From an uncultured Ignavibacteriales bacterium (lineage in GTDB: Bacteria > Zixibacteria > MSB-5A5 > GN15 > FEB-12), in NCBI GenBank assembly GCA_964371785.1, contig CAYJOL010000002.1, forward strand, positions 149,229-213,228: a stretch of 64,000 nt of DNA, in the 5' to 3' direction. The stretch's first letter is position 1. Each line of letters begins with the position of its first letter. Below, in pieces: positions 2,564-64,000 of this stretch. A model generated the notes under the pieces. It saw only the letters and a list, made by a program, of their open reading frames with translations, did no database searches and was not told the DNA's origin. Position numbers and translations under genes: made by a program.

Positions 2564-2564
2564 T

Positions 2565-6201: not shown

Positions 6202-6203
6202 CC

Positions 6204-10908: not shown

Positions 10909-10913
10909 AGTGT

Positions 10914-35964: not shown

Positions 35965-36147
35965 ATGGCGTGCAGGGAAACCGATGCAATCGTATATTAA
36001 GTCTGACACATCGTTTTGCCAAGGAAGCGAGATGGGGATTTTCCCGGAATTTTTGCACTTCTCTGCCTCAATTTCGGATGCGTCCGTCCCCAGATGCTTC
36101 ATATTTGGACAGAGAGCAAAAAGAGTCGTAAGAAAGGACGCAAACAC

Positions 36148-37974: not shown

Positions 37975-38087
37975 GAAAAGCTTGTCCTTCTGGTAGCCGG
38001 CGTTTCTGCGCAGCGGCGTTAGTGACGGTGATAGTACTGCCCGCCCGGTGTTTATTCGATTCAGCCAACTCCTTACTTAGTCGGCAT

Positions 38088-39047
38088 TTATACTCCGTAC
38101 TTGAGGTTGAGTTCCCGGGTCAGCCAGGGGAGGATTTTCCCATCCCTCATATGTGAGACAATACGTTGCCAACTGACTTTTCGTAGCATCCGCGGATTCA
38201 GCAGGGCTTCTCGCGTCCCAACCACGGCGGCATGTCCTTCTCCACCGAACTGAAAAGCCGGATTTCGGTCATCGTAGATGAGTACCACATGCCCACCATC
38301 TAGAGACACCGAATTGTCCGGACGCACTCCTATCGCCAGCACATTCCTGACCAGTTGATAGTTCTTGTAAACCGGACACGGATTCAGGTCCTGATCGTTT
38401 CGCCAATGGAAGAGCTTTGGCACATAGTCCCAATACAAAATTCCCACCTCGGACAATGAGCATCGACTCTTACGCCCTCTTTGAACCGAAAAGGTACCGT
38501 CGCACCAGTCGCTGCGATAGTTCGAGTCATCCGACCGTATCCGGGGACGGGAGCAGGTACCGATTTCCTGCTCGGTGAACTTGCATTCGATCGCTATCTG
38601 ATACTCGCCGGAAAAGAAACCATCAAGGCTGGTTGAACGGGATTCGCCAAGATGGGTAATCTCGTGCTCCATCTCAAAACTGTCTCGCGACACCCTCCTC
38701 TCGCCCAACAGAGCTTCGTCTTCGTCGTCTTTTAGTTCACTCAGAAGATGTATTGAGTCATGCACCACCAGGTTACCCAACACGCTCTGAGCCAGCGCCT
38801 GGGAGCTGTTCATACTGCCGAACCACCGGTGCCTGTCCTTGTCTGGTACTAGGTCAAGCAGACTTTTCCGTTCATTGGGTGTTGCCTCCGGATCGATAAT
38901 GACGTTCCGCCATGCTTCGCTTTTGACAAAGACAGGCGGGCGGTCATCTTGAGCATCCGCTTTCTCAAATAGATTTTGCCCATCTGGGAATATGCGTTTT
39001 ACGTAGTCCCAGTAACGGCGGTTGAGATCGGTTTGGAAATCTGACAT
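38088..39047 (-). CDS. hypothetical protein with possible PD-(D/E)xK nuclease-like core
   Basis: LDGFFSGEYQIAIECK (D ... E-x-K) within an alpha/beta-like region. No other recognisable domain. Confidence 0.3.
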   Translation of the reverse strand: MSDFQTDLNRRYWDYVKRIFPDGQNLFEKADAQDDRPPVFVKSEAWRNVIIDPEATPNERKSLLDLVPDKDRHRWFGSMNSSQALAQSVLGNLVVHDSIHLLSELKDDEDEALLGERRVSRDSFEMEHEITHLGESRSTSLDGFFSGEYQIAIECKFTEQEIGTCSRPRIRSDDSNYRSDWCDGTFSVQRGRKSRCSLSEVGILYWDYVPKLFHWRNDQDLNPCPVYKNYQLVRNVLAIGVRPDNSVSLDGGHVVLIYDDRNPAFQFGGEGHAAVVGTREALLNPRMLRKVSWQRIVSHMRDGKILPWLTRELNLKYGV

Positions 39048-44265: not shown

Positions 44266-45311
44266 TTAATGCCAGGAAGTCACATGCTCCTTCAGCCAGG
44301 CGATAATCGCCGGCGGGCCTTTTACCTGCTTGTACCAGTCGGGTCCGATTTTCTCAAGAGAGACAACGCGGCGAAGGATGGCCACTTCGTCGAGCGAATC
44401 GAAAGGCCGCGGAGCTTGATACTGCCGATCGAAAAGCATCGGATAGTTGTACCGGCCGGACAAGTCCTTCATTGCTTCCCTTCCCACTTTGTGCAGTATC
44501 GCGCCGGTGAGCACGTGCTGGTGTAAGAAGACCTGTCGAACCTCGCTGTTCTCGCACAGTCGTTGTACCAGAGGATCTTGATACGCGTGCGTAAATTCCT
44601 TTGCCCACTCCCGCATCACTCCCAGCGCTGGACGTACAGCCAGAAGTCCACAGTGAAAGTATGAGCGGATCCTCTGTTGATCAACCGGCGTAGTCATGGG
44701 AAACAGCATGCTGTCGTCGAGTCCCTGCAATTCATATATGCGCGCCCAAAGTTCATCCGGCTCATTGTCAAAAAGCGAGCCGGCGCGGTTATGCATCACC
44801 GGCGTGTAGGCAAGGTTCAGGTTGATTGGCAGACTAAGTTCATCCGGCTCTTTGATCACGACAGCGTCATTGTCGATCCAGACCATGGTCCCCCGATGGT
44901 CTTCAAGCATATCTCCGCCGTTGCCGCTGCGAACGGCTTGTCGCCGTAAAAGAGCAGACGAGCATCCGAAGGAGTTTCGCAACGGACTATCCGTACTCCA
45001 AGGGACTGCAATCTCCTGACATGACTCTCGGTAAACCAGGCCATGTGCGTCGGCACCACAGTGAGTACGTCGGAGCCTGAATACTTACCTGCAAACTCTC
45101 TAATGCTGGCAACCAGCGTGACCGCATTATTTAACGCCTCGTTGCATTCACAGAATGTGGCAAATGTGATGTTATCGTAACTCATCGGTCTTTCCGGCAA
45201 TGCGCATTGTTTCGGTACGAAGATACCATAGGATATGTTGCGCTGACAAGAGATTCCGGCAAACTGCCGTGGCTGGTCACATGCCGGCAGGAGTAGATTC
45301 AGGCGGCGCAT
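44266..45311 (-). pseudogene. frameshifted gene (two overlapping ORFs, 44856-45311 and 44266-44982), possibly a GT-A-like nucleotide-sugar transferase
   Basis: The two ORFs are in different frames, overlap by 127 nt, and read as N- and C-halves of one ~345-aa protein. A WIDNDAVV (DxD-like) motif is present. Confidence 0.4.
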
Positions 45312-48300
45312 TCAACGGCGCCCGCGGAGCCGCCGATGTCGCCCGCGAAAGAACTTCGCGAATAGTTTGCAGTAGTTGTTCGCGGCGATAAGGTTTCTGG
45401 ATGAGCGCTGCCGCTTCGGCTTCACCCAGGTTCATCTCAAATGCCTCCTTGCTGTAACCACTGGCGAACAAGGTCGGCACACCTGGTTTGATCTGCCGGG
45501 CTTCGAGATAGACTTCATGTCCCCCTACTTTCGGCATCATCAAATCCAGCAGGAGAAGGTCGATACACTCGTGCTTCTTGCGGAAGATCAGCAGGGCCTC
45601 TTCACCATCCTTGGCCAGAAGCACCGAGTATCCGGCTTTGGTCAATATGCGTTCCGTCAATTTTCGGAGGACTTCGTCATCCTCGGCCACCAGAATTGTC
45701 TCTCTACCACCGTCGCTCTGAGCCAGGCCATCGCTCGCTTGGTTCGTGACGTCTTTGTGGTTGATCGGAAAGAAGATTTCAAATCTTGACCCGACTCCGA
45801 CTTGACTATGCACTCTGATGAACCCATTGTGTTGCTTGACAGCTCCGAAAGCGGAGGACAGTCCAAGGCCGGTTCCTTTTCCCAATTCCTTGGTGGTAAA
45901 GAATGGTTCAAAGATATGTTTCCTGGTCTCCTCGTCCATTCCGCAGCCGGTGTCGCTGATGGTCATCCTGACATATTGTCCGGAGATTCCAGAATCCAGC
46001 GATTCATCGATTAACTGAGTGCATTCGGTTTCTATCATCAAAACGCCACCCTTTGCCATGGCGTCGCGGGCATTCACGCATAAATTGAGCACGATCTGTT
46101 CAATCAATCCGCGATCGGCTTGAATCATGCATTTTGCGGCATTAGGTTTGAAAACAAGTTCGATATGTTCACCAATTAGACGTCCCACCATCTTAAGCAA
46201 CTGGGTAAGCACGGTGTCGAGTTCAAGCCGTTCAGTGCTGAGTGTTTTCCGACGGCTGAACGTCAACAACTGGCTGACGAGCCCTTTGGCTCTTCCGATA
46301 GCGGTCGTGACATGAGCAAGTGACGATTGTAGTCGATTATCACCTTTGCTCTCTTCCACCGCGTATTCCGTGTAGCCTTGCATTATTTGCAGGAGGTTGT
46401 TGAAATCGTGAGCAACGCCGCCGGCCAGCTGGCCGATAGCTTCCATCTTCTGCGCCTGGAAGTACTGATCTCGAAGTAGCTCTCGCTCCTCCTCTGCCCG
46501 GACGCGGGAGGTCACGTCTCTGAAGCTCCATACTCGGCCGACAATTTCATTTTCAAGACGCTGTGGAGTCGAGTAGCGTTCATACACCCGGCCATCCTTG
46601 AAACGTAACACATCGAAACTCTCCGCGTCTGGATCTTCGTAAAGATGCTTCACTTTTGCCAGGAACTCCTCCGGCTGTTCAAGCTGACCGATGACATGAC
46701 CGAGGAGAAGGCGGTCATCGCCACCTTCGGCTATGTGGGGAGGTATCTGCCACATCTCGACAAATCGCCGGTTGAGAGAGGCTACATTTCCCTGCCTGTT
46801 GACCACGAGGATACCGTCGGCGGTTGATTCCAAGGTGGCGCGCAGAAGGGAGTGGGAGACGGCCAACTTTGCCTCGGCCTGCTTGCGCTTGCTGACGTCG
46901 CGACAGACACAGAACATGAGCTTCTTTCCGCCGCAGACGGCACCGTTGGTCTTGATCTCGACATCGAACTTTGTACCATCCTTTTGTCGGAATATCGTCT
47001 CAAAGTGATATCCGTTTGCGTCGACCGACTTCGTCATGGCGAGGACTTCATCTCGATTCTTGCCGACGTCCCAATCCCATGCGTGGAGAGCCAGTATTTC
47101 CGGTATCGAATACCCAAGCATCTCGGCGAAACTCGTGTTGGCCTCATAAACACCCGCCTCGGCATCGAGAATTACAATGCCATCTTTTGATTGCTCCAAA
47201 AGAATGCTGCGGCGAAACATTTCGTCAAGCAAGGCCTGCTCAGCTTCTTTTCTTTGCGTGATGTTCAGGTGTGTACCGCACGCGCGCAAGGGTTTTCCTT
47301 CAGCATCCCATTCGATCACTCTTCCCCGGTCGAGAATCCATACCCAATGACCGGATTTGTGACGAAGTCTGTGTTCGGTTTCATACTGCGGAGTAACGCC
47401 TTCAAGATGTGCCCGGACAGCTTCCATAACAGCCGCTAAGTCTTCGGGGTGAACCAGGCATTTCCATGCGGCGAGCGTCGGTTCCAATTCCGCGGTGGTG
47501 TACCCCAGCATTCCTGCCCAGCGCTCATCATATACAACTGTGCCGTTAGTAATATCCCAGTCCCAGATGCCAAGTTCGGCGCCGGAAAGGGCCAGTGACA
47601 AACGAAGTTCGCTCCGGGCTAGCGCTTTGAAATCTTCACGATTCCTGCGCTCGCGGGCGTCGATAGCACGATACGCCCAGAACAAGCCACCCAGGCCAAG
47701 TAACCATAAGATTACCCGCGCATAGATTGCCTCGAGACTGCTTTGCCGGGCGGCATCCAGAAACGGCTGCGCTGGAACGGCGACGCCGACACCTCCCAGC
47801 ACCTCATCGGCTCTCAATCCATCCCGTGCATGACAGTTCATGCACCCATCTGCCGGAGTAATCGGCCGCATCAGTCTAAGAACTTTTTGACCATTGACGT
47901 TGGCGTAGGTAACAATTTCGGTTGCCCCCGACTGAAGCGATTGAAGTGCGGATGTCTCCCAGCTGTCAGGAAGGTCAAGCTCGCCGGGCGGAAATACAAT
48001 CGAGTCAGGCAACGATTGCCATTCCCCAGGGGTTGACCCAGTACCTCTCAACATCGCATGATCGTTCACACGGTCCCGACCTGAAGGATCGATACCTCTC
48101 AGACCGATGAATTGTTTTGTCGGCAAAACTGTATCCGCGTTGAGCAAAGTGTCGCCATCGGGGAGGGTGAACATCCATGCTCTGGCGGTCTGGCCGGTAG
48201 CCAGATGGAAGCGGGCTTCGGCCAGGGCTAGGTACTTTGCTTCTGAATAATTCTGGTGTATCCTGAGGATCATCGAACCCAGTAGGATCAGGGACCAGAC

Positions 48301-48444
48301 TATTCCCGTGACTATAGCCAGACGAACCAGACGGGCATGCCAGTGGGTATCAACAGAACGCTCTCGTGAAGCGCCCCTGTTTCTCACTATGCTATTCTTA
48401 TCGAAATCAGCCTTTTCCGTCATGCTTTCGATTCCACAATCCAT
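45277..48444 (-). CDS. hybrid sensor histidine kinase / response regulator with periplasmic haem-c (CXXCH) sensor domain and multiple PAS domains
   Basis: Two TM helices flank a ~200-aa periplasmic domain with CMNCH (nt 47830-47844). Three or more PAS domains, HisKA (HDFNN), HATPase_c (GTGLGL), and a C-terminal receiver (ILVAEDDE ... LLLLDLMMP). Confidence 0.85.
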
Positions 48445-51794: not shown

Positions 51795-52915
51795 AGCCCT
51801 CCCAGCGAGTAACGAATCTCGAATTAAGTCCTATCCGTCGGTTCTCCGAGGGTGCGCCAGCGGATGCCATCCCGCTGGCGATCGGTCAGCCAACATGGGA
51901 TCTTCCGGTCGAAGGACAGGAAGCTTTGAGGCGATTCGCCGGAGTGTGTAGTTATGGACCGGGATCCGGCAGTCGGGAGCTTCGTGAAGAACTCGCCGCA
52001 ATGTACCATGCTACATACGATGAGGTCATGATTTCGTCCGGCTCGCAAGGATCTTTGTTTTCGCTCCTTCAGTCATTCGTAAATCCGGGTGAGCGTGTGT
52101 TAATTCCTGATCCGGGTTTCGTGACGTACAGAAACCTTGTGCTCTACTGTGAGGGAATTCCCTGCACATACCCGCTGTCCGCCGCAAATCACTATCGCTT
52201 GAACAAAGAATCAATATTCGAGGCTCTTGACCGGACGAATGCCCGCGTTGTTATTATCAATCACCCGGCAAATCCTACCGGTGGCGGAATGGTATCAGAT
52301 GAGCTCGTGGCAATTGCTGACGAGTGCTTTCGGCGCGATGTCCTTTTGATTTCCGATGAGGTGTACCGCGAGTTGTATCTGGGGGTCCGGCCACCGAGCC
52401 TTCGCGATGTCACTCGGTCCGGGGTGGTGGTAAGCTCGGTTAGCAAAGCATGGGGAGCGCCCGGCCTTCGGGTCGGATGGGCGATCGGCAGTCCCCGCTG
52501 GCTCGAACCCGCCCGTTTGGTGCATGCCTACACTGTCACAAGCGCATCATCTATTTCCCAGCTTGCAGCGACAGCCCTCATAAGGTCATCCGAGTCTATT
52601 CATGTCGCCGCCCGCGAGCAGGTCAAGATCCGATGGACTTCGTTGGCTGCGGCTTTGGACAAGCATCTGCAGATGAAGGCGAGTCCACCCGACGGGGCCT
52701 TCTACTACTGGTTGCCGATCCCCCGGAGTGCGCAGACAGACCCGATGGCCTTCTGTTTTCGTATACGTGATGAAGCCAGGGTGTTGTTAGTCCCCGGCGA
52801 AGCGTTTGGAGCAGGTGGGCGTACCTACGTCAGATTAAGTTATGCCGCGACGCCGGAGCAGATAACTGAGGGAGTGCGTCGAATAGTTCCGTATTGGATG
52901 ACCGACCGGGCCTGA
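51791..52915 (+). CDS. class I/II PLP-dependent aminotransferase (aromatic/aspartate type)
   Basis: PLP-lysine context SVSKAWGAPGLRVGW, the NHPANPTG motif, and operon context with aroH-tyrA. Confidence 0.75.
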   Translation: MKPSQRVTNLELSPIRRFSEGAPADAIPLAIGQPTWDLPVEGQEALRRFAGVCSYGPGSGSRELREELAAMYHATYDEVMISSGSQGSLFSLLQSFVNPGERVLIPDPGFVTYRNLVLYCEGIPCTYPLSAANHYRLNKESIFEALDRTNARVVIINHPANPTGGGMVSDELVAIADECFRRDVLLISDEVYRELYLGVRPPSLRDVTRSGVVVSSVSKAWGAPGLRVGWAIGSPRWLEPARLVHAYTVTSASSISQLAATALIRSSESIHVAAREQVKIRWTSLAAALDKHLQMKASPPDGAFYYWLPIPRSAQTDPMAFCFRIRDEARVLLVPGEAFGAGGRTYVRLSYAATPEQITEGVRRIVPYWMTDRA

Positions 52916-53009
52916 ACTTGACCGGCTGGACGGACAGGTTCGATTGCTCAGTGACTATTTCTGTCACTCGAGTCTGGACACATTTATCTCTTCTCCGTCT
53001 CGGCGTCGC

Positions 53010-54227
53010 CTAGCGGCGACCGAAAATGATACTGTATGTGACCGATGTGACAGGCTGTTCTTTATCGTCGGTTCTTACGGTAACACTGCCGGATAAATTC
53101 TTTTTGGCCCGGAGCGTTGCGGGTGTTGGAAGCATGGTTATCTCGTATTTCTTGCCCGCAAGCGAAGTGTCCACGTGGAGCGCAAGTCTTCCGTCGGCAT
53201 CATTGACATCCAAAAGTTGAAGCTGAACTCCGTTTTCGGTGCCGACAACTGTAACAACTTGTTTGTCCGGCGTCATTTCACCTTTCGACGTATCCACAAA
53301 GTAACGCACAAATTCCGGCGAAATGTCGTAATAGCCGACCACCGAACCTCGAATCTGCAAAGCAGCTTGCGAGCTGGAGCGGTCGCCTGCGCGAACTGTG
53401 ATTGTCGCATTGATGCGGCCTACCGGCATGCTCGATGTCCCCGTGATTTCAACCGTCAGCCGTCTCTTATCTGCGGCTGGTGAGTCAAGTATCTTCGCGG
53501 TTATGTTCGCTGATGACGAATTGATCTTTATAGTGTTAAGCAGGGTCGGATCTTTAACGATCAAAGTCGCCGTTTTGGTGATTGATTGGCCCTTGCGAAT
53601 CTTCCCAAAATCGATGCTATACTCGTCGAAACCGAAGACTACCTCAATCGTGCCGGAGACATATAATAACGCACCTGAACTTCGAGGATCATTGGATTCA
53701 ACCGTAATCGACTTTCTCTGCTGGCCTTTCTTGTTGCCGCTGTCAAAGGTGACTTCAATCTTTCCTTCCCCACCCGGGGGAATGTCCGTGTCGGTAAGCA
53801 CGGCCGCGGTGCATCCTCACGAACCCTTGGCCTTAATCAGGCGCAATGGGGCATCACCAATATTCCTGACGACAAATGTATGTGACACTTTCGTCCCCTG
53901 AGCAATCGTACCGAAATTGAACTCTGTTTCCGGGAAACTAATTCGGGGCCCACCGGTGGTTGCAGTTGTGTCGATAGCCGCCGGATTTTCGACAGACTGC
54001 GTGGTAGCCCGGGAGTTCACCGCGGCTGACTCGGATATGCTTGAAGGTGAGTTGTGAAGAATCATCCACACCGCTACCACAGTCGCTATAACCACCAGTC
54101 CACCGAGCAACCAGGCGGTATAGCGCCCGGACTTGATGCGGCTTGCCCGGCCCGATAATACCTGCCCGTCCTTCTTCACTGCAGTCCTGGCGGCCGGCTT
54201 AGTATTCCGTTGTTTTCGTTTTCCCAT
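53010..54227 (-). CDS. membrane-anchored DUF1573-domain protein interrupted by an in-frame TGA (53817-53819) at the conserved Cys of the S-C-G-C-T motif (pseudogene, or Sec/readthrough candidate)
   Basis: ORFs 53817-54227 and 53010-53801 are in the same frame. Reading through gives ... APLRLIKAKGS[TGA]GCTRAVLTDTDIPPGGEGKIEVTF, which matches the DUF1573 consensus G-S-C-G-C-T ... PG..G.I.V.F. N-terminal signal-anchor. Confidence 0.55.
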
Positions 54228-54237
54228 ATCTGTCTCT

Positions 54238-54903
54238 TCAGTCCTCTAGACGACCATCAATCAGACGAAGTCGCGTATTTCCAAATCTTGCTGCTTCCAA
54301 GCTATGCGTAACCATGATGACTGTCCGACCTTCTCTCTCGTTCAGTTCCTTGAGAATTCGTAAGACCTCAAGGGACAGATTTGGATCAAGGTTTCCCGTC
54401 GGTTCATCGGCAAGTATTACGTCTGGACTGTTCGCCAGAGCGCGAGCAATCGCAACCCGCTGCTGTTGACCGACAGACAACTCGCGTGGCAGGTGCTCTT
54501 TGCGGTCTTTTAGTCCGACTTTCTCGAGCAACTGTTCAGCAGACGCTCGGACAGTCCCGTCCTGCTCCTTACTGAATATCATCGGCAACATGACATTTTC
54601 CAACGCAGTCAGATATGGTATCAAATTGAAAGTTTGCAGCACAAATCCAACTTTACGATTACGGTATTCTGCCATTTCTGGTTCGGACATCGCATAAACG
54701 GCTTTCCCGGAGAACGCAACAGTACCTGCCGACGGCCGAATAAGACCACCAAGTGTCAGCAGGAGAGTAGTCTTCCCCGACCCCGACTGTCCCGTAACGG
54801 CCACAAAGCTTCCTCGCTCAACGGTCAAGGAAATGTTATCCAGCGCCCGCACCGTACCATGTTGCGAATCGTAGACTTTGCTCAGATTCTCTATGGTAAA
54901 CAT
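54238..54903 (-). CDS. ABC transporter ATP-binding protein (LolD/MacB/FtsE-like)
   Basis: Walker A GQSGSGKTT, signature LSVGQQQRVAIARAL, Walker B ILADEPTGNLD. Confidence 0.85.
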   Translation of the reverse strand: MFTIENLSKVYDSQHGTVRALDNISLTVERGSFVAVTGQSGSGKTTLLLTLGGLIRPSAGTVAFSGKAVYAMSEPEMAEYRNRKVGFVLQTFNLIPYLTALENVMLPMIFSKEQDGTVRASAEQLLEKVGLKDRKEHLPRELSVGQQQRVAIARALANSPDVILADEPTGNLDPNLSLEVLRILKELNEREGRTVIMVTHSLEAARFGNTRLRLIDGRLED

Positions 54904-54906
54904 GGC

Positions 54907-56127
54907 TCATGTCTCCTGCATGATAACTGCCGGATCAAACCGCGCCGCCCGGTAGACCGGAATGATGCTGCCCAGTAAGGCTATCAACACTGCCACCACT
55001 ACCGCAAACAGCAGATAGAGCGGCATTGGTGATACTTGAAGCCCGGCAAGTTGCGGTCCAAGGATCATGGCCGATCCGGTTCCAACGATGAAACCGCCAA
55101 TGCCGCCAACTACACCCAGGAACACTGCTTTTGACAAAAAGAGGCGGTAGATCGCTGAACGCTTCGTGCCAATGGTGATCAGAATGCCGATCTCCCGACG
55201 GCGCTCTTCGACATTCGCCCACATGTAGTTGCCAATTGTAATGGCACCTACTATGATGATGATCACCAGAAAGACCATGGATATCTTGCTCATGAGCTGA
55301 TTGGTCCGGATCTGCGTGCTGACAATCTGATTGATCGTCGTGATCCGCGTATCCGGCAAAATATTGCGGAGCTTGCCGAGGAGTCCATCCGAGATGGCCG
55401 AACAGCATCCCATGATCTCGATTGCGCTGACCTGCTGGCCAGTCCCCAAAAGCTGCTGAACCACGTGCAGGTGGGCATACACTCGACTGTCGTCAATGGT
55501 GCCGGTCTCCGGAATGACGCGGGCAACAGCAAAGGTCGATCCCTCTATTGTCACGGTCTGACCCTCGCGCAGGCTCAACCGCTGCGCAGCGCTGCTGCCG
55601 ACTAACACATCTGTGGTCGCTAGTGAGTCAACCGCCTTGCGTTGCAGCCTTTCGTCCTGATATCCAAAGGATTGATTAGCAGTGTTGCCAGGATCACACG
55701 CCGCGTTGAGGCCCGTTCCGACCAGTCCCGCTGTTTGCCAGATTGGTTTCGAGGCCAGCTCGTTAGCAGGTAGAATACCGGTGAGGATAATTGGCACATC
55801 GCCAACTTTCACCCGCCGGGTTAGCTTTGGGGAAAGGTTGTCAACCCCCGGCAACATCGATGTGGCCAGCCGTTCGACATAGTCTTCTGAAAACGTCGGG
55901 GCATCGACATCAGCCGAGTAGTAGTCATCGACCGACGCGGCCTGCGGTAGAATCAGGATATTCGCGCCCAGATTGTCGAGACTGACCTTGACAGCTTTCT
56001 CGGACACAGCAGAAACTGATTGAATTCCTACGATGACCGCGATGCCGAGCGTTATCCCTAGCAGAGCTGACACAAGTTGCGACTTCCGCAGCCACAACTC
56101 GCGCCAGAGTATAGTCTGAAGCTTCAT
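54907..56127 (-). CDS. FtsX-like ABC transporter permease (LolE/MacB-type)
   Basis: N-terminal TM helix, a large periplasmic domain, and three C-terminal TM helices (FtsX fold). Confidence 0.75.
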   Translation of the reverse strand: MKLQTILWRELWLRKSQLVSALLGITLGIAVIVGIQSVSAVSEKAVKVSLDNLGANILILPQAASVDDYYSADVDAPTFSEDYVERLATSMLPGVDNLSPKLTRRVKVGDVPIILTGILPANELASKPIWQTAGLVGTGLNAACDPGNTANQSFGYQDERLQRKAVDSLATTDVLVGSSAAQRLSLREGQTVTIEGSTFAVARVIPETGTIDDSRVYAHLHVVQQLLGTGQQVSAIEIMGCCSAISDGLLGKLRNILPDTRITTINQIVSTQIRTNQLMSKISMVFLVIIIIVGAITIGNYMWANVEERRREIGILITIGTKRSAIYRLFLSKAVFLGVVGGIGGFIVGTGSAMILGPQLAGLQVSPMPLYLLFAVVVAVLIALLGSIIPVYRAARFDPAVIMQET

Positions 56128-56138
56128 AACACGTGCTC

Positions 56139-56900
56139 TTACTTCTTTGGTGCGCAGGAAGCGTCAGGCTTCGCAACGGTAGAGGGACAGCAGCCGCCCA
56201 CTTTCTTGGTCGCGGTAGTAACGAGATCGGTAACTTGCATAGCTCCGGTATACATTCCGGCGATTTGACCCTGAGCATTGGCCACTAGCGTCACTGGTTC
56301 ATTCGACTGCAGATTCACTTTCATTTCCGTCAAGAAACCCGCTTCGACTGGGTCATCCATGTCGACAGTAACTTGCACCGATTTGCCGGCCATCTGCTGG
56401 CAAGCGGCGGCACAGGCACTATTGACGGACGCGGTCGAGACCATGCTCTTGCGACTGGCGGTGATGAATACAGCGTTCCCTTCAGAAAGAGCCTTAATGA
56501 CCTGCGCTTTCTTGGGAGATGGTACAAGCTTCACCAACTGATCAACCGTGGCCTGAGCAGCCACAACACCGCCGACAATGACGCCCGAGGACGAGCTCAC
56601 CAGTATGAGTGGCACCGGAGCGGTGGTCAGACCGTACTTTTTGATGAAGTCCACTTCAGCGGCGTCACCGCGATTGACTTCGATTAGTATCGAGCCGGGG
56701 ATCCGATCGACTGCCTGGACGGTCAGCTGGCGCGCTTGGTCAAGCTGCATCGCCCCGGCATCATAAACAAGAATTAAGGCGACTTTCCCGTTCTCCGCCG
56801 CCGTCTCCAGTTGTTGTTGTGCCACACCAAAGGCCGCTACCGCCATAAGCAGCACAGCAACGGTCAGGATGCTGATTTTCTTGAACATCTGGTCCTCCAT
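56139..56900 (-). CDS. secreted hypothetical protein, possibly tandem thioredoxin-fold-like, with Cys-rich C-terminal tail
   Basis: Signal peptide, two similar alpha/beta halves, and tail GGCCPSTVAKPDASCAPKK. No CxxC motif. Confidence 0.35.
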   Translation of the reverse strand: MEDQMFKKISILTVAVLLMAVAAFGVAQQQLETAAENGKVALILVYDAGAMQLDQARQLTVQAVDRIPGSILIEVNRGDAAEVDFIKKYGLTTAPVPLILVSSSSGVIVGGVVAAQATVDQLVKLVPSPKKAQVIKALSEGNAVFITASRKSMVSTASVNSACAAACQQMAGKSVQVTVDMDDPVEAGFLTEMKVNLQSNEPVTLVANAQGQIAGMYTGAMQVTDLVTTATKKVGGCCPSTVAKPDASCAPKK

Positions 56901-57059
56901 TCTGTGGTTACCATCTTATCGTGGACTCATATAGTCGATTATGTTGTCCATTTTATGAGCAGGCATCGCTCCTGCGGCCACCAAGTTCTTATACACTTTC
57001 CTATATTACTGGTCGAACCAAACACGCGCTATCGTTGGGTAATACATCCATTCGCCACG

Positions 57060-57530
57060 CTATCTAGCCATGATGCCACTTGACTCCAACCAGTCTTTTA
57101 CTTTTGAGCCTATTTCATCTCGTATGCGCCGGAAGACCGCCAGCACCTCTTCTTCGGTCCCTTTCGATTCCGCAGGATCTTCAAATGGCCAGTGCAGTTT
57201 ATTCCCCGTTCCGGGAAATACCGGACAGTTTGCGGCCGCGTTGTCGCAGACAGTAATGACATAGTCGAATGTCTGTCCAAGGTATTCGGACAAATGGTCC
57301 GAGGTGTGATTCGATATATCGATGCCAACTTCGCGCATGACCTGAATTGCGCGCGGATTCACTCCTTTTGGTTCAAGACCCGCCGAGGACACCTTTACCC
57401 TCTTACCTCCGTATTGCCGAAAGAACCCTTCGGCCATCTGCGATCGACAGGAGTTACCGGTACATATCATCAGAACGTGAAGTTGTTTCATTCGATTTGC
57501 CGTTGTGTAGAGTCTCCGGTCGAGCATCAT
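57060..57530 (-). CDS. arsC: arsenate reductase, LMW-PTP family (thioredoxin-coupled ArsC)
   Basis: CTGNSCRSQMAEG P-loop; Cys82 and Cys89 (CDNAAANCP). Confidence 0.85.
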   Translation of the reverse strand: MMLDRRLYTTANRMKQLHVLMICTGNSCRSQMAEGFFRQYGGKRVKVSSAGLEPKGVNPRAIQVMREVGIDISNHTSDHLSEYLGQTFDYVITVCDNAAANCPVFPGTGNKLHWPFEDPAESKGTEEEVLAVFRRIRDEIGSKVKDWLESSGIMAR

Positions 57531-57814
57531 TATTTATCCGCCGCGCAGCGCCCCGAGGCAACCAGGCTGTTCAGGCGTTCACGGTCTTGTGAGAACGGAT
57601 CGGTCTGGACGAGATGTTCACGAAGAAATACGCGCAGGTCGTTCATTACCGCGGTTCCCGAAAGGCGATAGTGCACCCACTTGCCGTCGCGGCGGTCCAG
57701 CACCAATCCGGCTGATTTCAATTTATTCAGATGCCGCGACACCGTCGATTGCGGCAAGCGGAGCGCCTCGAAAATGTCGCAGACACACAGTTCACGTTCC
57801 AGCAGGAGAATCAC
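57530..57814 (-). CDS. arsR: ArsR family arsenic-responsive repressor
   Basis: ELCVCDIFEAL As(III)-binding motif and HTH. Confidence 0.85.
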   Translation of the reverse strand: MILLLERELCVCDIFEALRLPQSTVSRHLNKLKSAGLVLDRRDGKWVHYRLSGTAVMNDLRVFLREHLVQTDPFSQDRERLNSLVASGRCAADK

Positions 57815-57864
57815 GATTCTCAGGCGAGTTGGATCTCCCAGGCCTTTGAAAATCTCGTGTGCTT

Positions 57865-58935
57865 TCAGGATGACACCCCCACCGCCGTATCCGGCATCTT
57901 AAAATACCTCCGCTGAAAATACAGGGCGACGTTTACGAGCGATATCAATACCGGAACTTCGACAAGCGGTCCGATAACGGCGGCAAAAGCCACCCCCGAG
58001 TTGATGCCGAACACCGCCACCGCAACAGCGATGGCCAGTTCGAAATTGTTGCTCGCGGCGGTAAACGAGAGTGTCGCCGTCTTCGAATAATCCGCGCCGA
58101 TCTTGCGGCCCATCCAGAAACTCACCAGAAACATCACTACGAAGTAGATCAGAAGTGGAATTGCTATGCGAAGCACATCCATGGGGATTTGTACAATCAG
58201 ATTCCCTTTCAGGCTGAACATGACAATTATCGTGAACAAGAGCGCCACCAGAGTTATCGGGCTGATTCGAGGGATGAACTTCTGCTCGTACCAGATCTTG
58301 CCTTTGGTCTTCAAGGCAATCAGACGGGTCAGCATGCCGGCAAGAAACGGAATTCCCAGATAGATGAAAACCGATTGAGCGATCTGCTTCATGCTGACGT
58401 CGACGACTGAACCGCTCAAACCGAAGAGCGGCGGAAGCACGGTTATGAAGACCCAGGCATAGAGCGAATAAAATAACACCTGAAAAATCGAATTGAATGC
58501 CACGAGACCGGCGGCATACTCGGTGTCTCCTTTGGCCAGCTCATTCCAAACGATCACCATGGCAATGCACCGCGCCAGCCCGATCATGATCAGACCGACC
58601 ATATACTCCGGGTACCCCCGCAGAAAAATAATCGCCAATGCAAACATGAGGATTGGCCCGATCACCCAGTTCTGTACGAGCGAGAGACCGAGAACCTTGG
58701 TGTTGCGAAATACATCGCTGAGTTCCTCGTACTTTACCTTGGCCAACGGCGGGTACATCATCAGGATGAGGCCGATCGCGATCGGGATATTAGTGGTGCC
58801 AACCTGGAAGTGGTTGATGAATCCTTCGACCGATGGCGCCAGGTACCCTAGGGCGACACCTGCCACCATGCCGAGAAATATCCAGAGAGTAAGGTAACGG
58901 TCGAGAAACGCAAGTCTTCGTATCACCGGCTGCAT
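57865..58935 (-). CDS. acr3: arsenite efflux permease ACR3 family
   Basis: Ten TM helices. ACR3-type sequence ([13 protein letters not shown] ... [14 protein letters not shown]). Confidence 0.85.
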
Positions 58936-59045
58936 AGCTTATCCGTTTGGCAGAGAATTATCATATCCGTTTATGTGAATATAATAATGCGAGCGCTGGC
59001 TGTCAAGAACTTCTTTGCGGGGGACAGCTTGACCGGTGCCTGAGA

Positions 59046-59804
59046 TTACATTCGGGATAATAAGTGAAGCAGTCCGTCGAGGATTGTAATAGGATGAGGC
59101 GGGCAGCCCGGTATATAGAGGTCAACCTTTAGTTTGCTGTCAGCGCCATTATGTACCTGGCGGTGATTGATGTAAGGTCCCCCTGATATCGCACAGGCAC
59201 CGACAGCGATCACGATTTTCGGGTCAGGAACCGCTTCGTACGTTTTTTCCAGCGCGAGTCTCATGTTCTCCGTAACCGGGCCGGTAATAAGCAAGCCGTC
59301 GGCGTGTCTCGGCGAAGCCACGAACTGGATACCGAACCTGCCCAGATCGAAAACGATCGTTCCCAGAACATTGATCTCGACTTCGCATCCGTTGCACCCC
59401 CCCGCGCTTACCTGCCGCAGGCGAAGTGATCGCTTGAACAAACGCATAGATTCATCGTTCAATTTCCGGACGAGCGCTTTTTCTGTATCATGTCGCACCA
59501 ACAGGTCTTCGCGTGTGCTGCCTGCGAGGCTGAAATCCCTGGTATACTGAATCAGATCATCGGGGCAGGCGCGTTCGCATTCGCCGCAGAACAGACACCG
59601 CCCCAGGTCAATTTCCGGATGACTGTTAATGACCTTTATGGCGGATGTCGGGCAGATATCGAGACAGGTCGCGCATCCATCCGGGCACGGCAGAGCGCTT
59701 ATGAGCGGGTATCCCCGAAAACGGTCCGGCAGAACAGGTGGTTCGTCGGGAAATCCTACGGTCCGGTTCCCGAAGTTCAAACGTGCAAGCAACGCCTTCA
59801 GCAT
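59046..59804 (-). CDS. fused 2x[4Fe-4S] ferredoxin (NuoI/HycF-like) plus small subunit (NuoB/HycG-like) of a group-4-hydrogenase-like complex
   Basis: CPDGCATCLDICP and CLFCGECERACP ferredoxin motifs, then CNGCE ... GACAISGG ... PGCPP (the four Cys of the proximal cluster). Confidence 0.7.
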   Translation of the reverse strand: MLKALLARLNFGNRTVGFPDEPPVLPDRFRGYPLISALPCPDGCATCLDICPTSAIKVINSHPEIDLGRCLFCGECERACPDDLIQYTRDFSLAGSTREDLLVRHDTEKALVRKLNDESMRLFKRSLRLRQVSAGGCNGCEVEINVLGTIVFDLGRFGIQFVASPRHADGLLITGPVTENMRLALEKTYEAVPDPKIVIAVGACAISGGPYINHRQVHNGADSKLKVDLYIPGCPPHPITILDGLLHLLSRM

Positions 59805-59813
59805 AATTTACTT

Positions 59814-61289
59814 CTAAAGATCATGTCCACAGTATGACAGGTTAAAACTCTTGTTGCATAAGGGGAAATCGGAAATCTGTTGATTGCGCATGGCCATAGC
59901 CAAACCCGCCCAGTTATGAAACGATGGATCTATCACCTTGTACCACTTGAATCGGCCGGCCTTATCGGTGCACGCGATATGGCAGATCTCTCCACGCCAA
60001 CCTTCCGTAAGCGCAATCGCTACGGAGTCCGGCTGCAGGGAACCGATAGACTGATGAGACGGCCCGTCGCGCAAGGCGGCAAGTTGCGCCCGGATGAATT
60101 CCACTGAACGTACTATTTCCAGCCAGCGTACGTAGGCGCGGCCAAAAACATCTCCGGTATTCCAGAGGGAGACCGGGATCTGGGCAAAACTGAAAACATC
60201 GGAGGGGTAATCCAGGCGGGCGTCCTGTTCGATACCTGCGGCGCGCGCTGGTACTCCCACCAGTCCCAATTCTTTGCATCGCGCGGCGGTCAACATCCCC
60301 GTACCTTCGAATCGATTAATTACAGACGGCGTCTCCCATAGCAGTTGAGATGTCTTACTGACGTCGCTGTACGCCTGATCCAGCTTTTGCCGGAACAATT
60401 TTAACTGATCGGACGTCAAGTCAAATTCTACTCCGCCAGGACGTGCGATACCCCGGCCCAGACGGCTGCCGCAGATGTATGCTGTCAAATTCAAGAAGTC
60501 TCCGCGTATGCGGCCGCAGTGTGCCGCGACAGGCAGATAACCAACATCGCCGGCCAACGCCCCCAGATCACCGGTGTGGTTAGCCAGACGCTCAAGCTCC
60601 AGCGCTATGCTCCGTATAATCATCCCCCGCAAGGGGACACGAGTGTGGGACAGCGACTCAATGTTCTGGCTATACGCAGTGACGTGACCGATAGTGGTGT
60701 CTCCGGCAAGTGTTTCCATGTAGGGGATCGTTCGAACCGAGGGTCCGCCGATCAGCGCTTCTTCGATTCCCCGGTGCTGGTAGCCGAGCGATATTTCCAG
60801 ATGGAGGACCTGCTCGCCGGCGCAGGAAAATCTGAAGTGACCGGGTTCGATAACGCCGGCGTGTACCGGTCCTACCGCCACCTCGTGAACATCGGAGCCG
60901 GCAACAGCGTAGAAGTTCGTGACGCCGATTGGCGTTTTCGTGAACCGAATCGGTTTGAGCCAGGGATGACCATGCGGAGTTATATTCCAGGTCTCAGCGA
61001 TCTCTCGTTCAAACCAGTGCGCCTGCGCACATCGCGCGGAAAGCGATGGATACTCACGGGCCACCAACGTCGAAACGAATTCTATACCTCCGCGATCCCG
61101 GGCTGTGGTAAGCGAAAAGAGTTGAAATTCTCTGGACTCTACCGGTTGAGCAAACAGCGCCACGAGGCGATCGTTGCGGCAAACGGCCGTCGTGATCACA
61201 TCGGCAAACTCATCATACGGCATGACCGGGATGCTCCCGAATGGTACAATCTCGCAATTGTGACACAAATGAGGGCGAGGGGCAGACAT
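59814..61289 (-). CDS. NuoC-NuoD-like large subunit of an energy-converting-hydrogenase-related complex; NiFe-ligating cysteines apparently absent
   Basis: NuoC-like N-domain; NuoD/HycE-like core (GPVHAGVIEPGHFRF ... LGYQHRG). At the position of the L1 motif RxCGxC the sequence reads ETLAGDTT. There is no C-terminal DPCxxC. Confidence 0.65.
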   Translation of the reverse strand: MSAPRPHLCHNCEIVPFGSIPVMPYDEFADVITTAVCRNDRLVALFAQPVESREFQLFSLTTARDRGGIEFVSTLVAREYPSLSARCAQAHWFEREIAETWNITPHGHPWLKPIRFTKTPIGVTNFYAVAGSDVHEVAVGPVHAGVIEPGHFRFSCAGEQVLHLEISLGYQHRGIEEALIGGPSVRTIPYMETLAGDTTIGHVTAYSQNIESLSHTRVPLRGMIIRSIALELERLANHTGDLGALAGDVGYLPVAAHCGRIRGDFLNLTAYICGSRLGRGIARPGGVEFDLTSDQLKLFRQKLDQAYSDVSKTSQLLWETPSVINRFEGTGMLTAARCKELGLVGVPARAAGIEQDARLDYPSDVFSFAQIPVSLWNTGDVFGRAYVRWLEIVRSVEFIRAQLAALRDGPSHQSIGSLQPDSVAIALTEGWRGEICHIACTDKAGRFKWYKVIDPSFHNWAGLAMAMRNQQISDFPLCNKSFNLSYCGHDL

Positions 61290-62767
61290 CAGTGACCTCC
61301 CAGTAAGCGAGCCGCCTCGGCCAGCAGTTCATTCAGGGCGGGCGGAATATATATGCCCAAGATCAGTACCATTACACAAAGCAACGCCGGCGACACAAGT
61401 GACAGACGTGGTTCTTCGCTGACGGTGGGCGGAGTCGTTGCCTGACTTGTCCCATAAGCCATGCCTATCACGATGCTGATCATGGCAATGAATATGATCC
61501 CGAGCGCAAGCAGCAGAAGCACGGCGATAAGTTCATGTCCTGAATCAAATGCCGCGCGCAGAATAGTCAATTCGCTCTGGAACAAGCCGAACGGAGGCGT
61601 CCCGGTTATGGCCAGCAGGCCGGCCATCCAGAGTACGCCCGAGCGAGGAAGCGTGCCGACCAGACCTTTGACGGCCGCGATTGACTTGGTCTTGTATCGC
61701 GCCAGGATATTTCCGGCCACCAGGAACAACATCCCCTTTGTCAGTGAATGATTGACCGCGTGCAGCATGGCGCCGAAAGCGCCGAGCCCGCCGAGCCCAA
61801 CACCCACCGCGAGGAGTCCCATATGCTCGATACTTGAGTACGCCAGCATGCGCTTGTAATCAAGCTGCGCGACGATGAAAACGGTGGCGAAAACAACCGA
61901 CAGCAGGCCGAAGATTAGCAGCAACTCTCGCGCAAACGCACCCGACCCTGCGGCATCTATTACCTGAGTGATTCGCAGGATACTCAGAAAGGCGCAATTT
62001 AACAGGGCGCCGGAAAGGAGCGCCGAGACAACCGACGGCGCTTCACTATGAGCATCGGGCAACCAGCTGTGCAAGGGCGCCAGGCCCATTTTCGTCCCAT
62101 AACCGACGAGCAAGAAGATAAATGACATCTTGAGCCAGGGAACTTGAAGCACATGGGCGTGCGCAATAAGGTCCTCGACCACCAATGGCAGGGCGGCGGC
62201 TTCGTTCCCGGAAGCTGCCAGGGCCAGAAAGAACGTACCGAGCAGAGCCAGAGCTATGCCGACGGAACAAATCAGTAAGTACTTCCAGGTAGCTTCCAGC
62301 GAGCGATGGTGCCGATGAAAATAAATGAGCGGAGCGCTGGTAAGTGTTGTTGCCTCCACCGCCACCCAGAGTAGGCCGAAGTTATGACTGACCGTGACGA
62401 GTGTCATCATCGATAAGAACAACAGAAGACAACCGACAAATACTGCCTCCGGTTCATTCACGAATAAGGCCGTCTCCTGGAAGTCAGGCCTGAATCCCGG
62501 CTGTTCATTCGCCAGATAGGATACTGCATATAGCGCGGCGGCCAGGAAGAGACCGCTGACTACAGAGAGAAAAAGTAAGCCAAGCGCGTCAACTTGAAGC
62601 CATCCATCCATAATCGGGTCAGGACGGGTAAACCACATCAGTCCCGTCAGCGTCGCGTGTACCACCGCGGTCACAACCAGGAGCAACCTACGCACATCGT
62701 TTCTTCTCGTGACAAACGAAGTGAGTCCGGCAAGTGCAGGAAGCATGACGAGCAGGAGAATTACCAT
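61289..62767 (-). CDS. antiporter-like membrane subunit (NuoL/M/N-MrpD-HyfB family)
   Basis: About 14 TM helices and a proton-conducting-transporter pattern (WLPDAHSEAPSVVSALLSG). Confidence 0.75.
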   Translation of the reverse strand: MVILLLVMLPALAGLTSFVTRRNDVRRLLLVVTAVVHATLTGLMWFTRPDPIMDGWLQVDALGLLFLSVVSGLFLAAALYAVSYLANEQPGFRPDFQETALFVNEPEAVFVGCLLLFLSMMTLVTVSHNFGLLWVAVEATTLTSAPLIYFHRHHRSLEATWKYLLICSVGIALALLGTFFLALAASGNEAAALPLVVEDLIAHAHVLQVPWLKMSFIFLLVGYGTKMGLAPLHSWLPDAHSEAPSVVSALLSGALLNCAFLSILRITQVIDAAGSGAFARELLLIFGLLSVVFATVFIVAQLDYKRMLAYSSIEHMGLLAVGVGLGGLGAFGAMLHAVNHSLTKGMLFLVAGNILARYKTKSIAAVKGLVGTLPRSGVLWMAGLLAITGTPPFGLFQSELTILRAAFDSGHELIAVLLLLALGIIFIAMISIVIGMAYGTSQATTPPTVSEEPRLSLVSPALLCVMVLILGIYIPPALNELLAEAARLLGGH

Positions 62768-63453
62768 GTGTCCGGCTCCTTGTCGAAGCCAGCCCTGCGG
62801 CTTTTGAACCAGTCTCTGAGCGTGCTCAACTGCCCCGATTCTATGTTATCGAACGTTCGATTAATCTGGAACACCATAATTCCCATGATGAATACGCCCA
62901 CGAATACATCGAGCAGTATGCCAATTTCAATCAGCATCGACTCGGACTGGGCAAAAAAGACACCGAAGGCATAGATCCCGTTCTCCAAGACGAGGTACCC
63001 CATTATTTGCATGAGAGCCTGCCTTCGACTCACGAGTAAAAACAATCCGGTAACGATAGTAAAGAAGACCATCGGGATAGCGAGACGGTACCCGGCATGA
63101 TCAGGCAATGGCAGTACATACCCCCACCACAACGAACTCCCCATCACGAGTATGCCGATCAACAGCGACGGCATCGGACCGACATAGTACGTAATATGCC
63201 GGACCGAGCTAAGCTCACGGAGACTTCGCATCAGCAGGCGGGGGAAAACAATACCCTTGAGAAGGATTACGAGAATAGCGATCACAGCAAGTCGAACGGT
63301 CAGTCCCCCCTGATGCACACACAGCGGCAGTACTCCGAGGGCGAATCCCTGAAGGGTGACCAGGCGGACGGAAGCCTTGAGCCACTCGGCGCCGAGGAGC
63401 AGGAAGTTCACGATTATAATCAGGACAATGACTGCATTTACCAGATCATACAT
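62761..63453 (-). CDS. HyfE-like small membrane subunit of hydrogenase-4-type complexes
   Basis: Six TM helices. The C-terminal region (RRQALMQIMGYLVLENG ... EIGILLDVFVGVFIMG) resembles HyfE. Confidence 0.5.
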   Translation of the reverse strand: MYDLVNAVIVLIIIVNFLLLGAEWLKASVRLVTLQGFALGVLPLCVHQGGLTVRLAVIAILVILLKGIVFPRLLMRSLRELSSVRHITYYVGPMPSLLIGILVMGSSLWWGYVLPLPDHAGYRLAIPMVFFTIVTGLFLLVSRRQALMQIMGYLVLENGIYAFGVFFAQSESMLIEIGILLDVFVGVFIMGIMVFQINRTFDNIESGQLSTLRDWFKSRRAGFDKEPDTW

Positions 63454-63456
63454 ATA

Positions 63457-64000
63457 TCACCCGAGAACCAGAATAGCTGCCAGCATTGAGATCGCCCCTG
63501 CTCCGACCAGAAGCTGGGGGACCTTGAGCAATCGCAAACGGGCCATCGACGACTCCACCACTCCAACGGTTATCGCAAGCAATACCATTCCACCAAGCGC
63601 GAATCCCTCACGCATCCAGATGCTGGAATCAACCAGATTGGGCGATGCAACTCCGACAAACAGCGACCCAAGCAGCCAGAGTTTCAGCGCGCTTCCGTAC
63701 GAGACGATTCCGAAATCCGGGCCGCCGTGATCCAGAACCATCACTTCATGGATCATGGTCAATTCAAGATGGGTCGCGGGATCATCGACCGGAATCCGAG
63801 AGTTTTCGGCGAGCAGTAGAATGAACAGTGATGTCGCCACAAGCGCCGGCGCCCCGATACTCCACCCGGTCACTCCGGAAGTATACAGGATCGTGCTTAA
63901 AGACAGGCTGTGACTCAGACGGGATAGCGAGAGCAAGCCGACCAGCAGGGCCGGCTCAATCAGCATGGCATACGTGATTTCTCGACTGGCTCCCATTCCC
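63457..64000 (-). CDS. NuoH/HycD-like membrane subunit, 5'-truncated by the window edge (C-terminal 180 aa present)
   Basis: LLAENSRIPVDDPATHLELTMIHEV matches the NuoH/HycD quinone-loop region (E-x-N-R-x-PFD). The frame is open to the window edge. Confidence 0.65.
   Translation of the reverse strand, partial: GMGASREITYAMLIEPALLVGLLSLSRLSHSLSLSTILYTSGVTGWSIGAPALVATSLFILLLAENSRIPVDDPATHLELTMIHEVMVLDHGGPDFGIVSYGSALKLWLLGSLFVGVASPNLVDSSIWMREGFALGGMVLLAITVGVVESSMARLRLLKVPQLLVGAGAISMLAAILVLG

Follow-up and report, generated by a model that had tools for sequence, protein, structure and literature searches.

An Ehr-type membrane complex from a Zixibacteria genome: a former NiFe pocket without its NiFe ligands and a conserved HTH-EIIA partner gene

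Introduction

What reaction is left to a membrane complex that is built like a hydrogenase and has kept none of the cysteines that would hold a NiFe centre? The question is raised by a set of genes at the end of a 64,000-nucleotide stretch of DNA from an uncultured Ignavibacteriales bacterium, placed among the Zixibacteria by GTDB (contig CAYJOL010000002.1, positions 149,229 to 213,228 of the forward strand; assembly GCA_964371785.1). We refer to this whole stretch as the window and number positions from its first letter. An earlier reading of the letters and their open reading frames (ORFs), made without database searches and called here the sequence-only reading, had described the genes as part of a group 4 hydrogenase-like complex lacking the NiFe-binding cysteines, of either the energy-converting hydrogenase-related (Ehr) or the Mbx-like kind. 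Our analysis supports the first of these assignments: the genes encode an Ehr (ehrABCDLS) complex, an already known and widespread kind of membrane enzyme of the complex I superfamily.

The first Ehr to be described was that of Geobacter sulfurreducens (GSU0739-0745; Coppi, 2005; Marreiros et al., 2013, both as cited in PMC6688271 and PMC6349859). Supplementary Note 4 of PMC6349859 sets out the six subunits, among them the NuoC-D and NuoI-B fusions, and the name ehrABCDLS is used for Methylacidiphilum (PMC6688271) and for Methanospirillum hungatei (PMC4704411). Its function was stated to be unknown as late as 2023 (PMC10284858). In the literature we found genomic or proteomic mentions of Ehr only, and no biochemical or structural study. 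Ehr is among the most widespread members of the complex I superfamily without an assigned substrate, and since its genes are routinely mis-annotated, metabolic reconstructions based on metagenomes give a distorted picture of H2 metabolism and respiration. The present instance alone adds no new biology; its value lies in the family-wide picture to which it leads.

The large subunit and the former NiFe site

The argument turns on EhrL, a 491-residue large subunit in which a NuoC-like and a NuoD/HycE-like domain are fused and the NiFe ligands are missing (window 59814-61289, minus strand; Pfam Complex1_49kDa, E = 3.2e-34, and Complex1_30kDa, E = 1.9e-5). When EhrL was compared by phmmer with all PDB chains, the best match was HycE of Escherichia coli formate hydrogenlyase (FHL; 7z0s_E, 2.5e-39), followed by Thermus thermophilus Nqo4 (3.6e-31), MbhL of the Pyrococcus furiosus membrane-bound hydrogenase (MBH; 6cfw_L, 4.7e-26) and MbsL of the membrane-bound reductase of sulfane sulfur (MBS), which is the weakest solved relative (2.3e-14). 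The alignments with HycE and MbhL are ungapped across the L1 and C-terminal motifs. At L1 (RxCGxCxxxH) HycE reads RVCGICGFAH and MbhL has C68-G-I-C71...H75, whereas EhrL residues 192-202 read ETLAGDTTIGH (60684-60716, minus strand), with A195 and T198 in place of the cysteines. At the former L2 or C-terminal motif (DPCxxCxxR) DPCYSCTDR of HycE faces NLSYCGHDL, within EhrL residues 478-491, CNKSFNLSYCGHDL (59817-59858, minus strand); here the cysteines have become S485 and G488, and a neighbouring cysteine, C487, lies one position ahead of that of the fourth ligand. None of the four NiFe-ligand cysteines is kept. Both the L1 string and the missing C-terminal DPCxxC had been read correctly from the sequence alone. 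A displaced set of ligands, which was that reading's own reservation, is not found either: the only CxxC of EhrL (C9-x2-C12) belongs to the NuoC-like domain and homologues do not conserve it, so that a shifted alignment cannot rescue the site. The EhrL chain stops at the point that corresponds to the end of a processed hydrogenase; lacking a C-terminal extension, it leaves nothing for an endopeptidase to remove.

The replacements are themselves conserved. We aligned 200 large-subunit homologues, drawn from Zixibacteria, Verrucomicrobia, Planctomycetes, Desulfobacterota, Acidobacteria, Lentisphaerae, Kiritimatiellae, Spirochaetes and others, and found 137 of the 491 positions to be at least 97% conserved. 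Position 195 is Ala in 173 sequences, Ser in 19 and Cys in eight; position 198 is Thr in 176, Ser in 16 and Ala in seven. Between and beyond them G196 and D197 are present in 200/200 and H202 in 199/200. The C terminus forms an invariant block, C478-N-K-S-F-N-L-S-Y-C487-G, in which C478, N479, K480, S481, F482 and L484 occur in all 200 homologues, S485, Y486 and G488 in 199 and C487 in 198.

The residues that surround the former NiFe site as its second shell are likewise invariant in the family, as judged by alignment with MbhL and the proton-donor and second-sphere residues listed in PMC11228991. The primary proton donor Glu21L, which occupies the position of Nqo4 His38 (PMC11228991), corresponds to EhrL E148; His75L corresponds to H202, Arg320L to R432, His325L to H437, the Glu343-Pro-Thr345 segment to D454-P455-S456 and Asp372 to N483. 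The quinone-binding residues of complex I fare differently. Tyr87 and His38 (T. thermophilus numbering) are replaced by the invariant G196 and by E148, although Nqo4 Asp139 is matched by the invariant D248. By these residues the pocket appears to be hydrogenase-like rather than complex I-like. An AlphaFold2 (AF2) model gave a confident NuoC-NuoD fold, with a predicted template-modelling score (pTM) of 0.84, and its best Foldseek neighbour is again HycE (7z0s_E; template-modelling score 0.80).

Could EhrL simply be a hydrogenase subunit in decay or one with an unconventional metal site? The fold and second sphere are hydrogenase-like, C487 is next to where the fourth ligand would be, and C478 does not vary, all of which would suit such an explanation. 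Nevertheless, no ligand survives, the substitutes are conserved in 200 sequences, no hyp maturation genes lie nearby and divergent Ehr-like paralogues (see below) also lack C478 and C487. Purifying selection is so strong across the phyla that decay is ruled out, and we regard this explanation as a whole as extremely improbable. Since the replacements are conserved, the second shell is invariant and, as shown in the next section, the pumping residues are kept, the complex is a selected enzyme and not a decayed hydrogenase.

The electron wire and the membrane arm

The small subunit EhrS (252 residues; window 59046-59804, minus strand; Pfam Oxidored_q6, 5.5e-31, plus Fer4) is itself a fusion. Residues 1-110 are NuoI/HycF-like with two [4Fe-4S] sites and residues 123-252 are NuoB/HycG-like with the proximal [4Fe-4S] site; the best PDB matches are HycG (1.4e-32), MbhJ (1.1e-31) and HycF (1.1e-13). 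All 12 Fe-S cysteines are present (40/44/47/51, 70/73/76/80 and 137/140/204/234), each at least 95% conserved among 72 homologues, and these include the four proximal-cluster ligands that the sequence-only reading had recognized. The proximal motif GGC137NGC140E is of the hydrogenase CxxC type; the 'GLACC' tandem-Cys motif of complex I aligns at this point. A tandem CC at the proximal cluster has been tied to quinone reduction in complex I and NDH (PMC8165549).

In the membrane arm, EhrD is a HyfF/NuoM/N-type antiporter-like subunit of 492 residues (61289-62767, minus strand; Proton_antipo_M, 1.3e-51; NCBIfam hydrogenase 4 subunit F, 4.8e-115), with MbhH as its best PDB match (3.3e-27). Residues E138, K226, H233 and K344 do not vary among 71 homologues, the invariant residues including the glutamate of transmembrane helix 5 and the lysines of helices 7 and 11, and position 399 is Glu or Lys. 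EhrC, a HyfE-like, NuoK-related subunit of 230 residues (62761-63453, minus strand; NCBIfam hydrogenase 4 membrane subunit, 7e-22; Pfam Oxidored_q2, 2.2e-5), has invariant E157, E176 and D182 in 69 homologues, and in the NuoH/HycD-like EhrB nine acidic residues are invariant, also in 69. The HyfB-like EhrA carries a complete antiporter set (E140/K217/K248/H337/H341/K345/E400) in 61/61 sequences and keeps the helix 7 lysine where HycC has Leu. Taken together, these residues are what an active redox-driven ion translocator, and not a relic, should look like.

Operon organization

ORF and Pfam/NCBIfam profile searches placed five tightly packed ORFs, all on the minus strand and read in one direction, in window 59046-64000. 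In order of transcription these are the partial ehrB (from 63457 to beyond 64000), ehrC, ehrD, ehrL and ehrS, the genes and order given by the sequence-only reading; neighbours overlap or are separated by 3-9 nt. The E-values exclude chance as the source of the subunit assignments. We place the start of ehrL at 61289, where a TGATG overlap joins it to the ehrD stop, GGAGG lies 9 nt upstream and the N-terminus of the resulting 491-residue protein aligns with homologues. Public gene calls give EhrL as 469 residues; the overlap, the GGAGG and the N-terminal homology favour the longer form.

The expected continuation past the window edge could be followed on a public contig of 320 kb (ENA ERZ13692937, NODE_24; L002 below), which matches window 52001-64000 with 0 mismatches over 12,000 nt and adds three genes. 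The window holds the last 180 of the 304 codons of ehrB (63457-64000, minus strand; Pfam NADHdh, 7.5e-12 with the partial and 1.6e-30 with the complete protein), and the full 304-residue protein is encoded at L002 6853-7767. Next comes ehrA (658 residues; L002 4880-6856; 'hydrogenase 4 subunit B', 4.5e-176; HycC, 2e-70). The first gene of the operon, 5 nt from ehrA, encodes a 234-residue protein with a helix-turn-helix (HTH_17) and a phosphotransferase system (PTS) EIIA-2, or PtsN-like, domain (L002 4170-4874, plus strand of L002), which corresponds to about 2.35-3.05 kb past window position 64000 in minus-strand sense. Upstream of this HTH-EIIA gene a 690-bp spacer leads to a divergent MgtE gene; no sigma-54-like site was seen on reading the region upstream of the operon. 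The complete order of the complex genes is HyfB-like, NuoH/HyfC-like, HyfE-like, HyfF-like, HyfG-like and HyfH+I-like, that is, the hyf order minus hyfA and hyfD.

The upstream search had been proposed with the sequence-only reading as a way to recover the remaining subunits and any maturation genes. The subunits were recovered; the operon begins, however, with the HTH-EIIA gene and not with a hydrogenase subunit, and no hyp genes are present in the 7.2 kb of L002 upstream. Across these 7.2 kb and the 64-kb window, about 71 kb in all, we found no hyp, other hydrogenase, formate dehydrogenase (FDH) or molybdopterin genes.

Directly downstream of ehrS lie genes for ACR3 (SBF family), ArsR and an ArsC of the low-molecular-weight phosphatase type (window 57060-58935, minus strand). 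The 110-nt gap before them contains a sigma70-like promoter, TTGACA-17-TATATT (58978-59006, minus strand), and because they have this strong promoter of their own the ars genes probably form a separate transcription unit.

Comparison with related complexes

Profile matches for the six proteins give large- and small-subunit homologues together with NuoH-like, HyfE-like and antiporter-like membrane subunits; the large subunit lacks both Ni/Fe-coordinating CxxC motifs, and the NuoC-NuoD and NuoI-NuoB fusions stand in the order A-B-C-D-L-S. By published description the Geobacter Ehr matches the present one in its subunits and their order (NuoL/HyfB-like A, NuoH-like B, HyfE-like C, antiporter-like D, large L and small S), in both fusions and in the lack of NiFe cysteines, the difference being two ehrA genes in Geobacter and one here. 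The Ehr part of the sequence-only reading is thus upheld by subunit set and order, by the cysteine loss and by the absence of hyp genes from the 71 kb. Its Mbx-like alternative does not hold. MBS/Mbx (PDB 6U8Y) is likewise hydrogenase-derived and no longer makes H2, but in MBS two of the four NiFe cysteines survive and three Cys hold the catalytic proximal cluster (PMC8165549), whereas Ehr has lost all four and has a four-Cys cluster.

For every subunit the best sequence or fold matches are in the group 4a systems of E. coli, hydrogenase-4/FHL-2 (hyfABCDEFGHI) and FHL-1 (Hyc; PDB 7Z0S). Ehr has in common with these the B-C-E-F-G-H-I gene order, the CxxC-type proximal cluster (C137, C140, C204, C234) and the Glu and His proton donors. 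It differs from them in lacking all four L1/L2 cysteine ligands, HyfA/HycB, HyfD, the FdhF partners, the C-terminal extension and, within the 71 kb around the operon, maturation genes, as well as in the H+I fusion and in the helix 7 lysine of EhrA noted above. P. furiosus MBH (PDB 6CFW) offers a second parallel, with a ferredoxin-fed wire of three clusters, homologous MbhL, MbhJ, MbhN and MbhH, and the second-sphere Glu21, His75, Arg320 and His325 that Ehr conserves; MBH, however, has 14 subunits, a full Mrp module and a NiFe site, while Ehr has six subunits and no such site. Complex I, NDH-1 and Fpo belong to the same superfamily and share the NuoB, C, D, H, I, K-like and antiporter-like modules and the aspartate at D248; Ehr is without the tandem CC for cluster N2 (GGC137NGC140 instead), Tyr87/His38, NuoA, NuoJ and NuoEFG.

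Distribution and synteny

A search with EhrL returned at least 8,000 candidates, all scored ones with E <= 1e-10, a set that includes NuoD and hydrogenase relatives. Among the top 120, identity is 55-74%, and many relatives are annotated as 'Ni,Fe-hydrogenase III large subunit' or 'NADH-quinone oxidoreductase subunit C'. For synteny we took the best 80 loci from contigs with one genome per species, in which the closest relative comes from a Zixibacteria metagenome-assembled genome (72%). These loci span more than ten phyla, among them Verrucomicrobia, Planctomycetes, Desulfobacterota, Acidobacteria, Lentisphaerae, Kiritimatiellae, Spirochaetes, Hydrogenedentota and KSB1, and a Methylacidiphilales locus (L077), from an order whose isolates are annotated ehrABCDLS (PMC6688271), is also a member of the family. 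Gene order is A-B-C-D-L-S almost without exception, and at least ten loci have two ehrA genes.

All-against-all clustering of 574 flanking ORFs from the 80 loci, with an eye to hyp, fdh or other oxidoreductase genes as conserved neighbours, produced no family present in more than seven loci; neither hyp nor fdh is among the recurrent neighbours. The families that do recur (aspartyl-tRNA synthetase, GyrA, thiolase, G3P dehydrogenase, ABC ATPase, a sigma54 response regulator and Rex) reflect housekeeping genes or lineage synteny. The Ehr module therefore comes without a conserved redox partner, hyp or fdh, and is self-contained. In five loci a gene for a Rex-type redox-sensing repressor (Put_DNA-bind_N + CoA_binding) lies a few kilobases from the Ehr cluster (for example L023 2552-3286); this proximity may be lineage synteny only.

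In some Lentisphaerae and Verrucomicrobia genomes a second, divergent Ehr-like cluster of six genes adjoins the first (L043 13199-20932, minus strand; L082 9143-16845 and L083 2187-9968, plus strand). These clusters have also lost the NiFe cysteines. The GD and NKSF[ND]LSY motifs are common to both types, and the C-terminal motif of the divergent large subunits is SGTDR in L082 and L083 and AGHDL in L043.

Five other cysteines of EhrL (C156, C258, C273, C478 and C487), unrelated to the NiFe ligands, are invariant or nearly so in the subfamily, and we considered whether together they make an Fe-S or metal site. They cannot form one cluster, because C258 and C273 are 15 residues apart on a single predicted helix (252-273). 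As a general trait of Ehr such a site also fails, the divergent paralogues in L043, L082 and L083 each lacking one or more of C156, C478 and C487. A local site of C273, C478 and C487 is still conceivable.

The HTH-EIIA partner

The most constant companion of the complex is the gene that opens the operon. Its product has an N-terminal excisionase/MerR-type HTH_17 domain followed by the PTS EIIA-2 domain (PF00359, 2.1e-22). Where enough upstream sequence is available (58 loci), the gene lies directly upstream of ehrA in 46 and as a divergent copy in five more, and some of the remaining seven carry it between two ehrA genes; it thus adjoins about 80-90% of the family loci. Median identity to the copy in the window genome is 55%, compared with 56% for the catalytic subunit, and the protein thus appears to evolve as slowly as the catalytic subunits.

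Among PDB entries PtsN/EIIA(Ntr) (PDB 1A6J, 3URR, 4GQX) ranks first both in the profile search and for the AF2 fold (template-modelling score 0.79 to 3URR). The EIIA-2 fold and the histidine of the GxAIPH motif are both present, and the phospho-His motif GIAIPH136 is invariant. Homologues number more than 7,000 and are annotated as PTS IIA or nitrogen-regulatory IIA. The protein differs from PtsN in its added HTH_17 domain and in its operon link to a respiratory-type complex. We found no mention of the gene in the Ehr literature. It is the point that is apparently new relative to published accounts of Ehr, with the family-wide residue map as added value.

Proposed function

We lean, a little beyond an even judgement, towards Ehr being a ferredoxin-linked, ion-translocating oxidoreductase that reduces an acceptor other than protons in the NiFe-free pocket of EhrL and is controlled by the HTH-EIIA protein. 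A low-potential soluble donor, most probably ferredoxin, would dock on the NuoI-like half of EhrS, and the three [4Fe-4S] clusters would carry its electrons to the pocket that housed NiFe in the hydrogenase ancestor. There a small acceptor would be reduced with proton uptake, using the retained proton-donor residues E148 and H202 ringed by R432, H437, D248 and D454. The resulting changes in charge and conformation may be relayed through the beta1-beta2 loop and EhrB to EhrC, EhrD and EhrA, which would translocate H+ or Na+; possibly the reaction is reversible. The HTH-EIIA protein would set ehr expression, or possibly activity, with His136 phosphorylated by a nitrogen-type PTS relay.

Several observations weigh against this proposal. 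Nothing in the sequence indicates acceptor binding, and the naming of the donor is likewise conjecture, there being no gene for a partner oxidoreductase close by. Confidence of the AF2 model (pLDDT) is lowest, below 50, at just the beta1-beta2 loop (136-149) and the C-terminal tail (478-491). The central lysine of helix 8 in EhrD is replaced by N/S/T257 in all 71 family members, and this family-wide loss could mean that one of the two antiporter-like channels operates in another way or is inactive. The role given to the HTH-EIIA protein is drawn only from gene neighbourhood. Finally, there are published hints of formate: in proteomics of Geobacter the Ehr subunits reach their highest abundance in cells grown on formate (PMC7894505), and in Methanospirillum hungatei ehr (Mhun_1817-1822) stands beside fdh genes and a formate transporter (PMC4704411). 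The 80 loci show no such link.

These hints speak for an explanation in which Ehr is a module coupled to FDH, much as in formate hydrogenlyase, and is fed electrons by an enzyme whose gene lies elsewhere in the genome. The FHL subunits are its closest solved relatives, and FDH-Ehr coupling has been proposed for Margulisbacteria and Saganbacteria (PMC6349859). We give it a low probability, as neither an FDH nor a molybdopterin gene occurs in the 71 kb around the operon or recurs among the neighbours in the 80 loci; moreover, it names the donor only, and the problem of the acceptor would stay even if it were true. A different course is to let the acceptor be menaquinone, with Ehr as a trimmed complex I/NDH-1/Fpo-like ferredoxin:quinone oxidoreductase and the quinone reduced in a chamber between EhrL, EhrS and EhrB. 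Menaquinone respiration is found in many of the host phyla, EhrB is NuoH-like with its nine invariant acidic residues, D248 is the equivalent of Nqo4 Asp139, and quinone has been considered as a possible Ehr acceptor (PMC6349859). What makes us judge it quite unlikely is that the ligands of the quinone headgroup are absent, G196 standing for Tyr87 and E148 for His38, the latter in its hydrogenase state, and that the proximal motif is the hydrogenase CxxC and not the tandem CC (PMC8165549). The family also occurs in lineages reported to lack quinones, Riflemargulisbacteria (PMC6349859) and Methanospirillum. The Ehr loci also include some from Treponemataceae and Lentisphaerae, hosts which we take to be generally without quinones.

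Turnover might also be dispensed with altogether. Ehr would then be a redox-gated cation/proton antiporter serving pH or ion homeostasis, its Fe-S chain sensing the redox state of ferredoxin with no reaction in EhrL, and EIIA(Ntr) linking it to the control of K+ and other ions. PtsN regulates K+ transporters in proteobacteria, and the conserved partner here is PtsN-like. The Mrp-type subunits keep their charged residues, no partner enzyme or acceptor module lies close by, and a pH-homeostasis role has been proposed for ehrABCDLS of the acidophilic Methylacidiphilum (PMC6688271). We find this explanation decidedly doubtful, because a strict wire of three clusters and a conserved second sphere (E148, H202, R432, H437) exceed what a sensor appears to need. 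We also know of no precedent in the superfamily for a Q-module without turnover.

The preferred reading, a ferredoxin-linked oxidoreductase, can be taken further, to a version that we put forward as unlikely but consequential: Ehr as a distinct respiratory class, a ferredoxin-driven pump with a metal-free pocket that reduces an unrecognised small acceptor and is gated through HTH-EIIA(Ntr). The pocket would then be lined, as a speculative assignment, by E148, D197, H202, R432, H437, K480 and Y486, and in the subfamily also by C273, C478 and C487. If this were true, membrane energisation would be tied to nitrogen-PTS phosphorylation in many phyla that have no sugar PTS, with the HTH-EIIA protein gating Ehr output by transcription or by direct binding.

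For experiment, the loss of the first shell beside an invariant second shell, the hydrogenase-type proximal cluster and the intact pump residues all offer handles, as do the lack of a conserved redox partner and the co-evolving PtsN-like HTH protein. Geobacter, Methylacidiphilum and relatives of Akkermansia are tractable hosts of Ehr.

Other genes in the window

Beyond the ars genes, a MacB-type ABC exporter occupies window 53010-56900 (minus strand), with the FtsX permease at 54907-56127 and the ATPase at 54238-54903. It is flanked by two DUF1573 Ig-like proteins and by a 253-residue protein (56139-56900) that has no Pfam match and a Cys-rich C-terminus. A second exporter operon, TetR-OEP-HlyD-ABC-2, lies at 636-7301 (plus strand), and is followed at 8193-16924 (plus strand) by a polysaccharide biosynthesis cluster with a flippase, four GT4 glycosyltransferases, Wzy and Wzz. 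The window further encodes a di-haem cytochrome c peroxidase (33555-34640, plus strand), an Ada-type methyltransferase/regulator (36016-37254, plus strand), an FkbM methyltransferase adjoining a REase-ARP nuclease (37303-39047, minus strand) and a multi-PAS hybrid histidine kinase of 1055 residues (45277-48444, minus strand).

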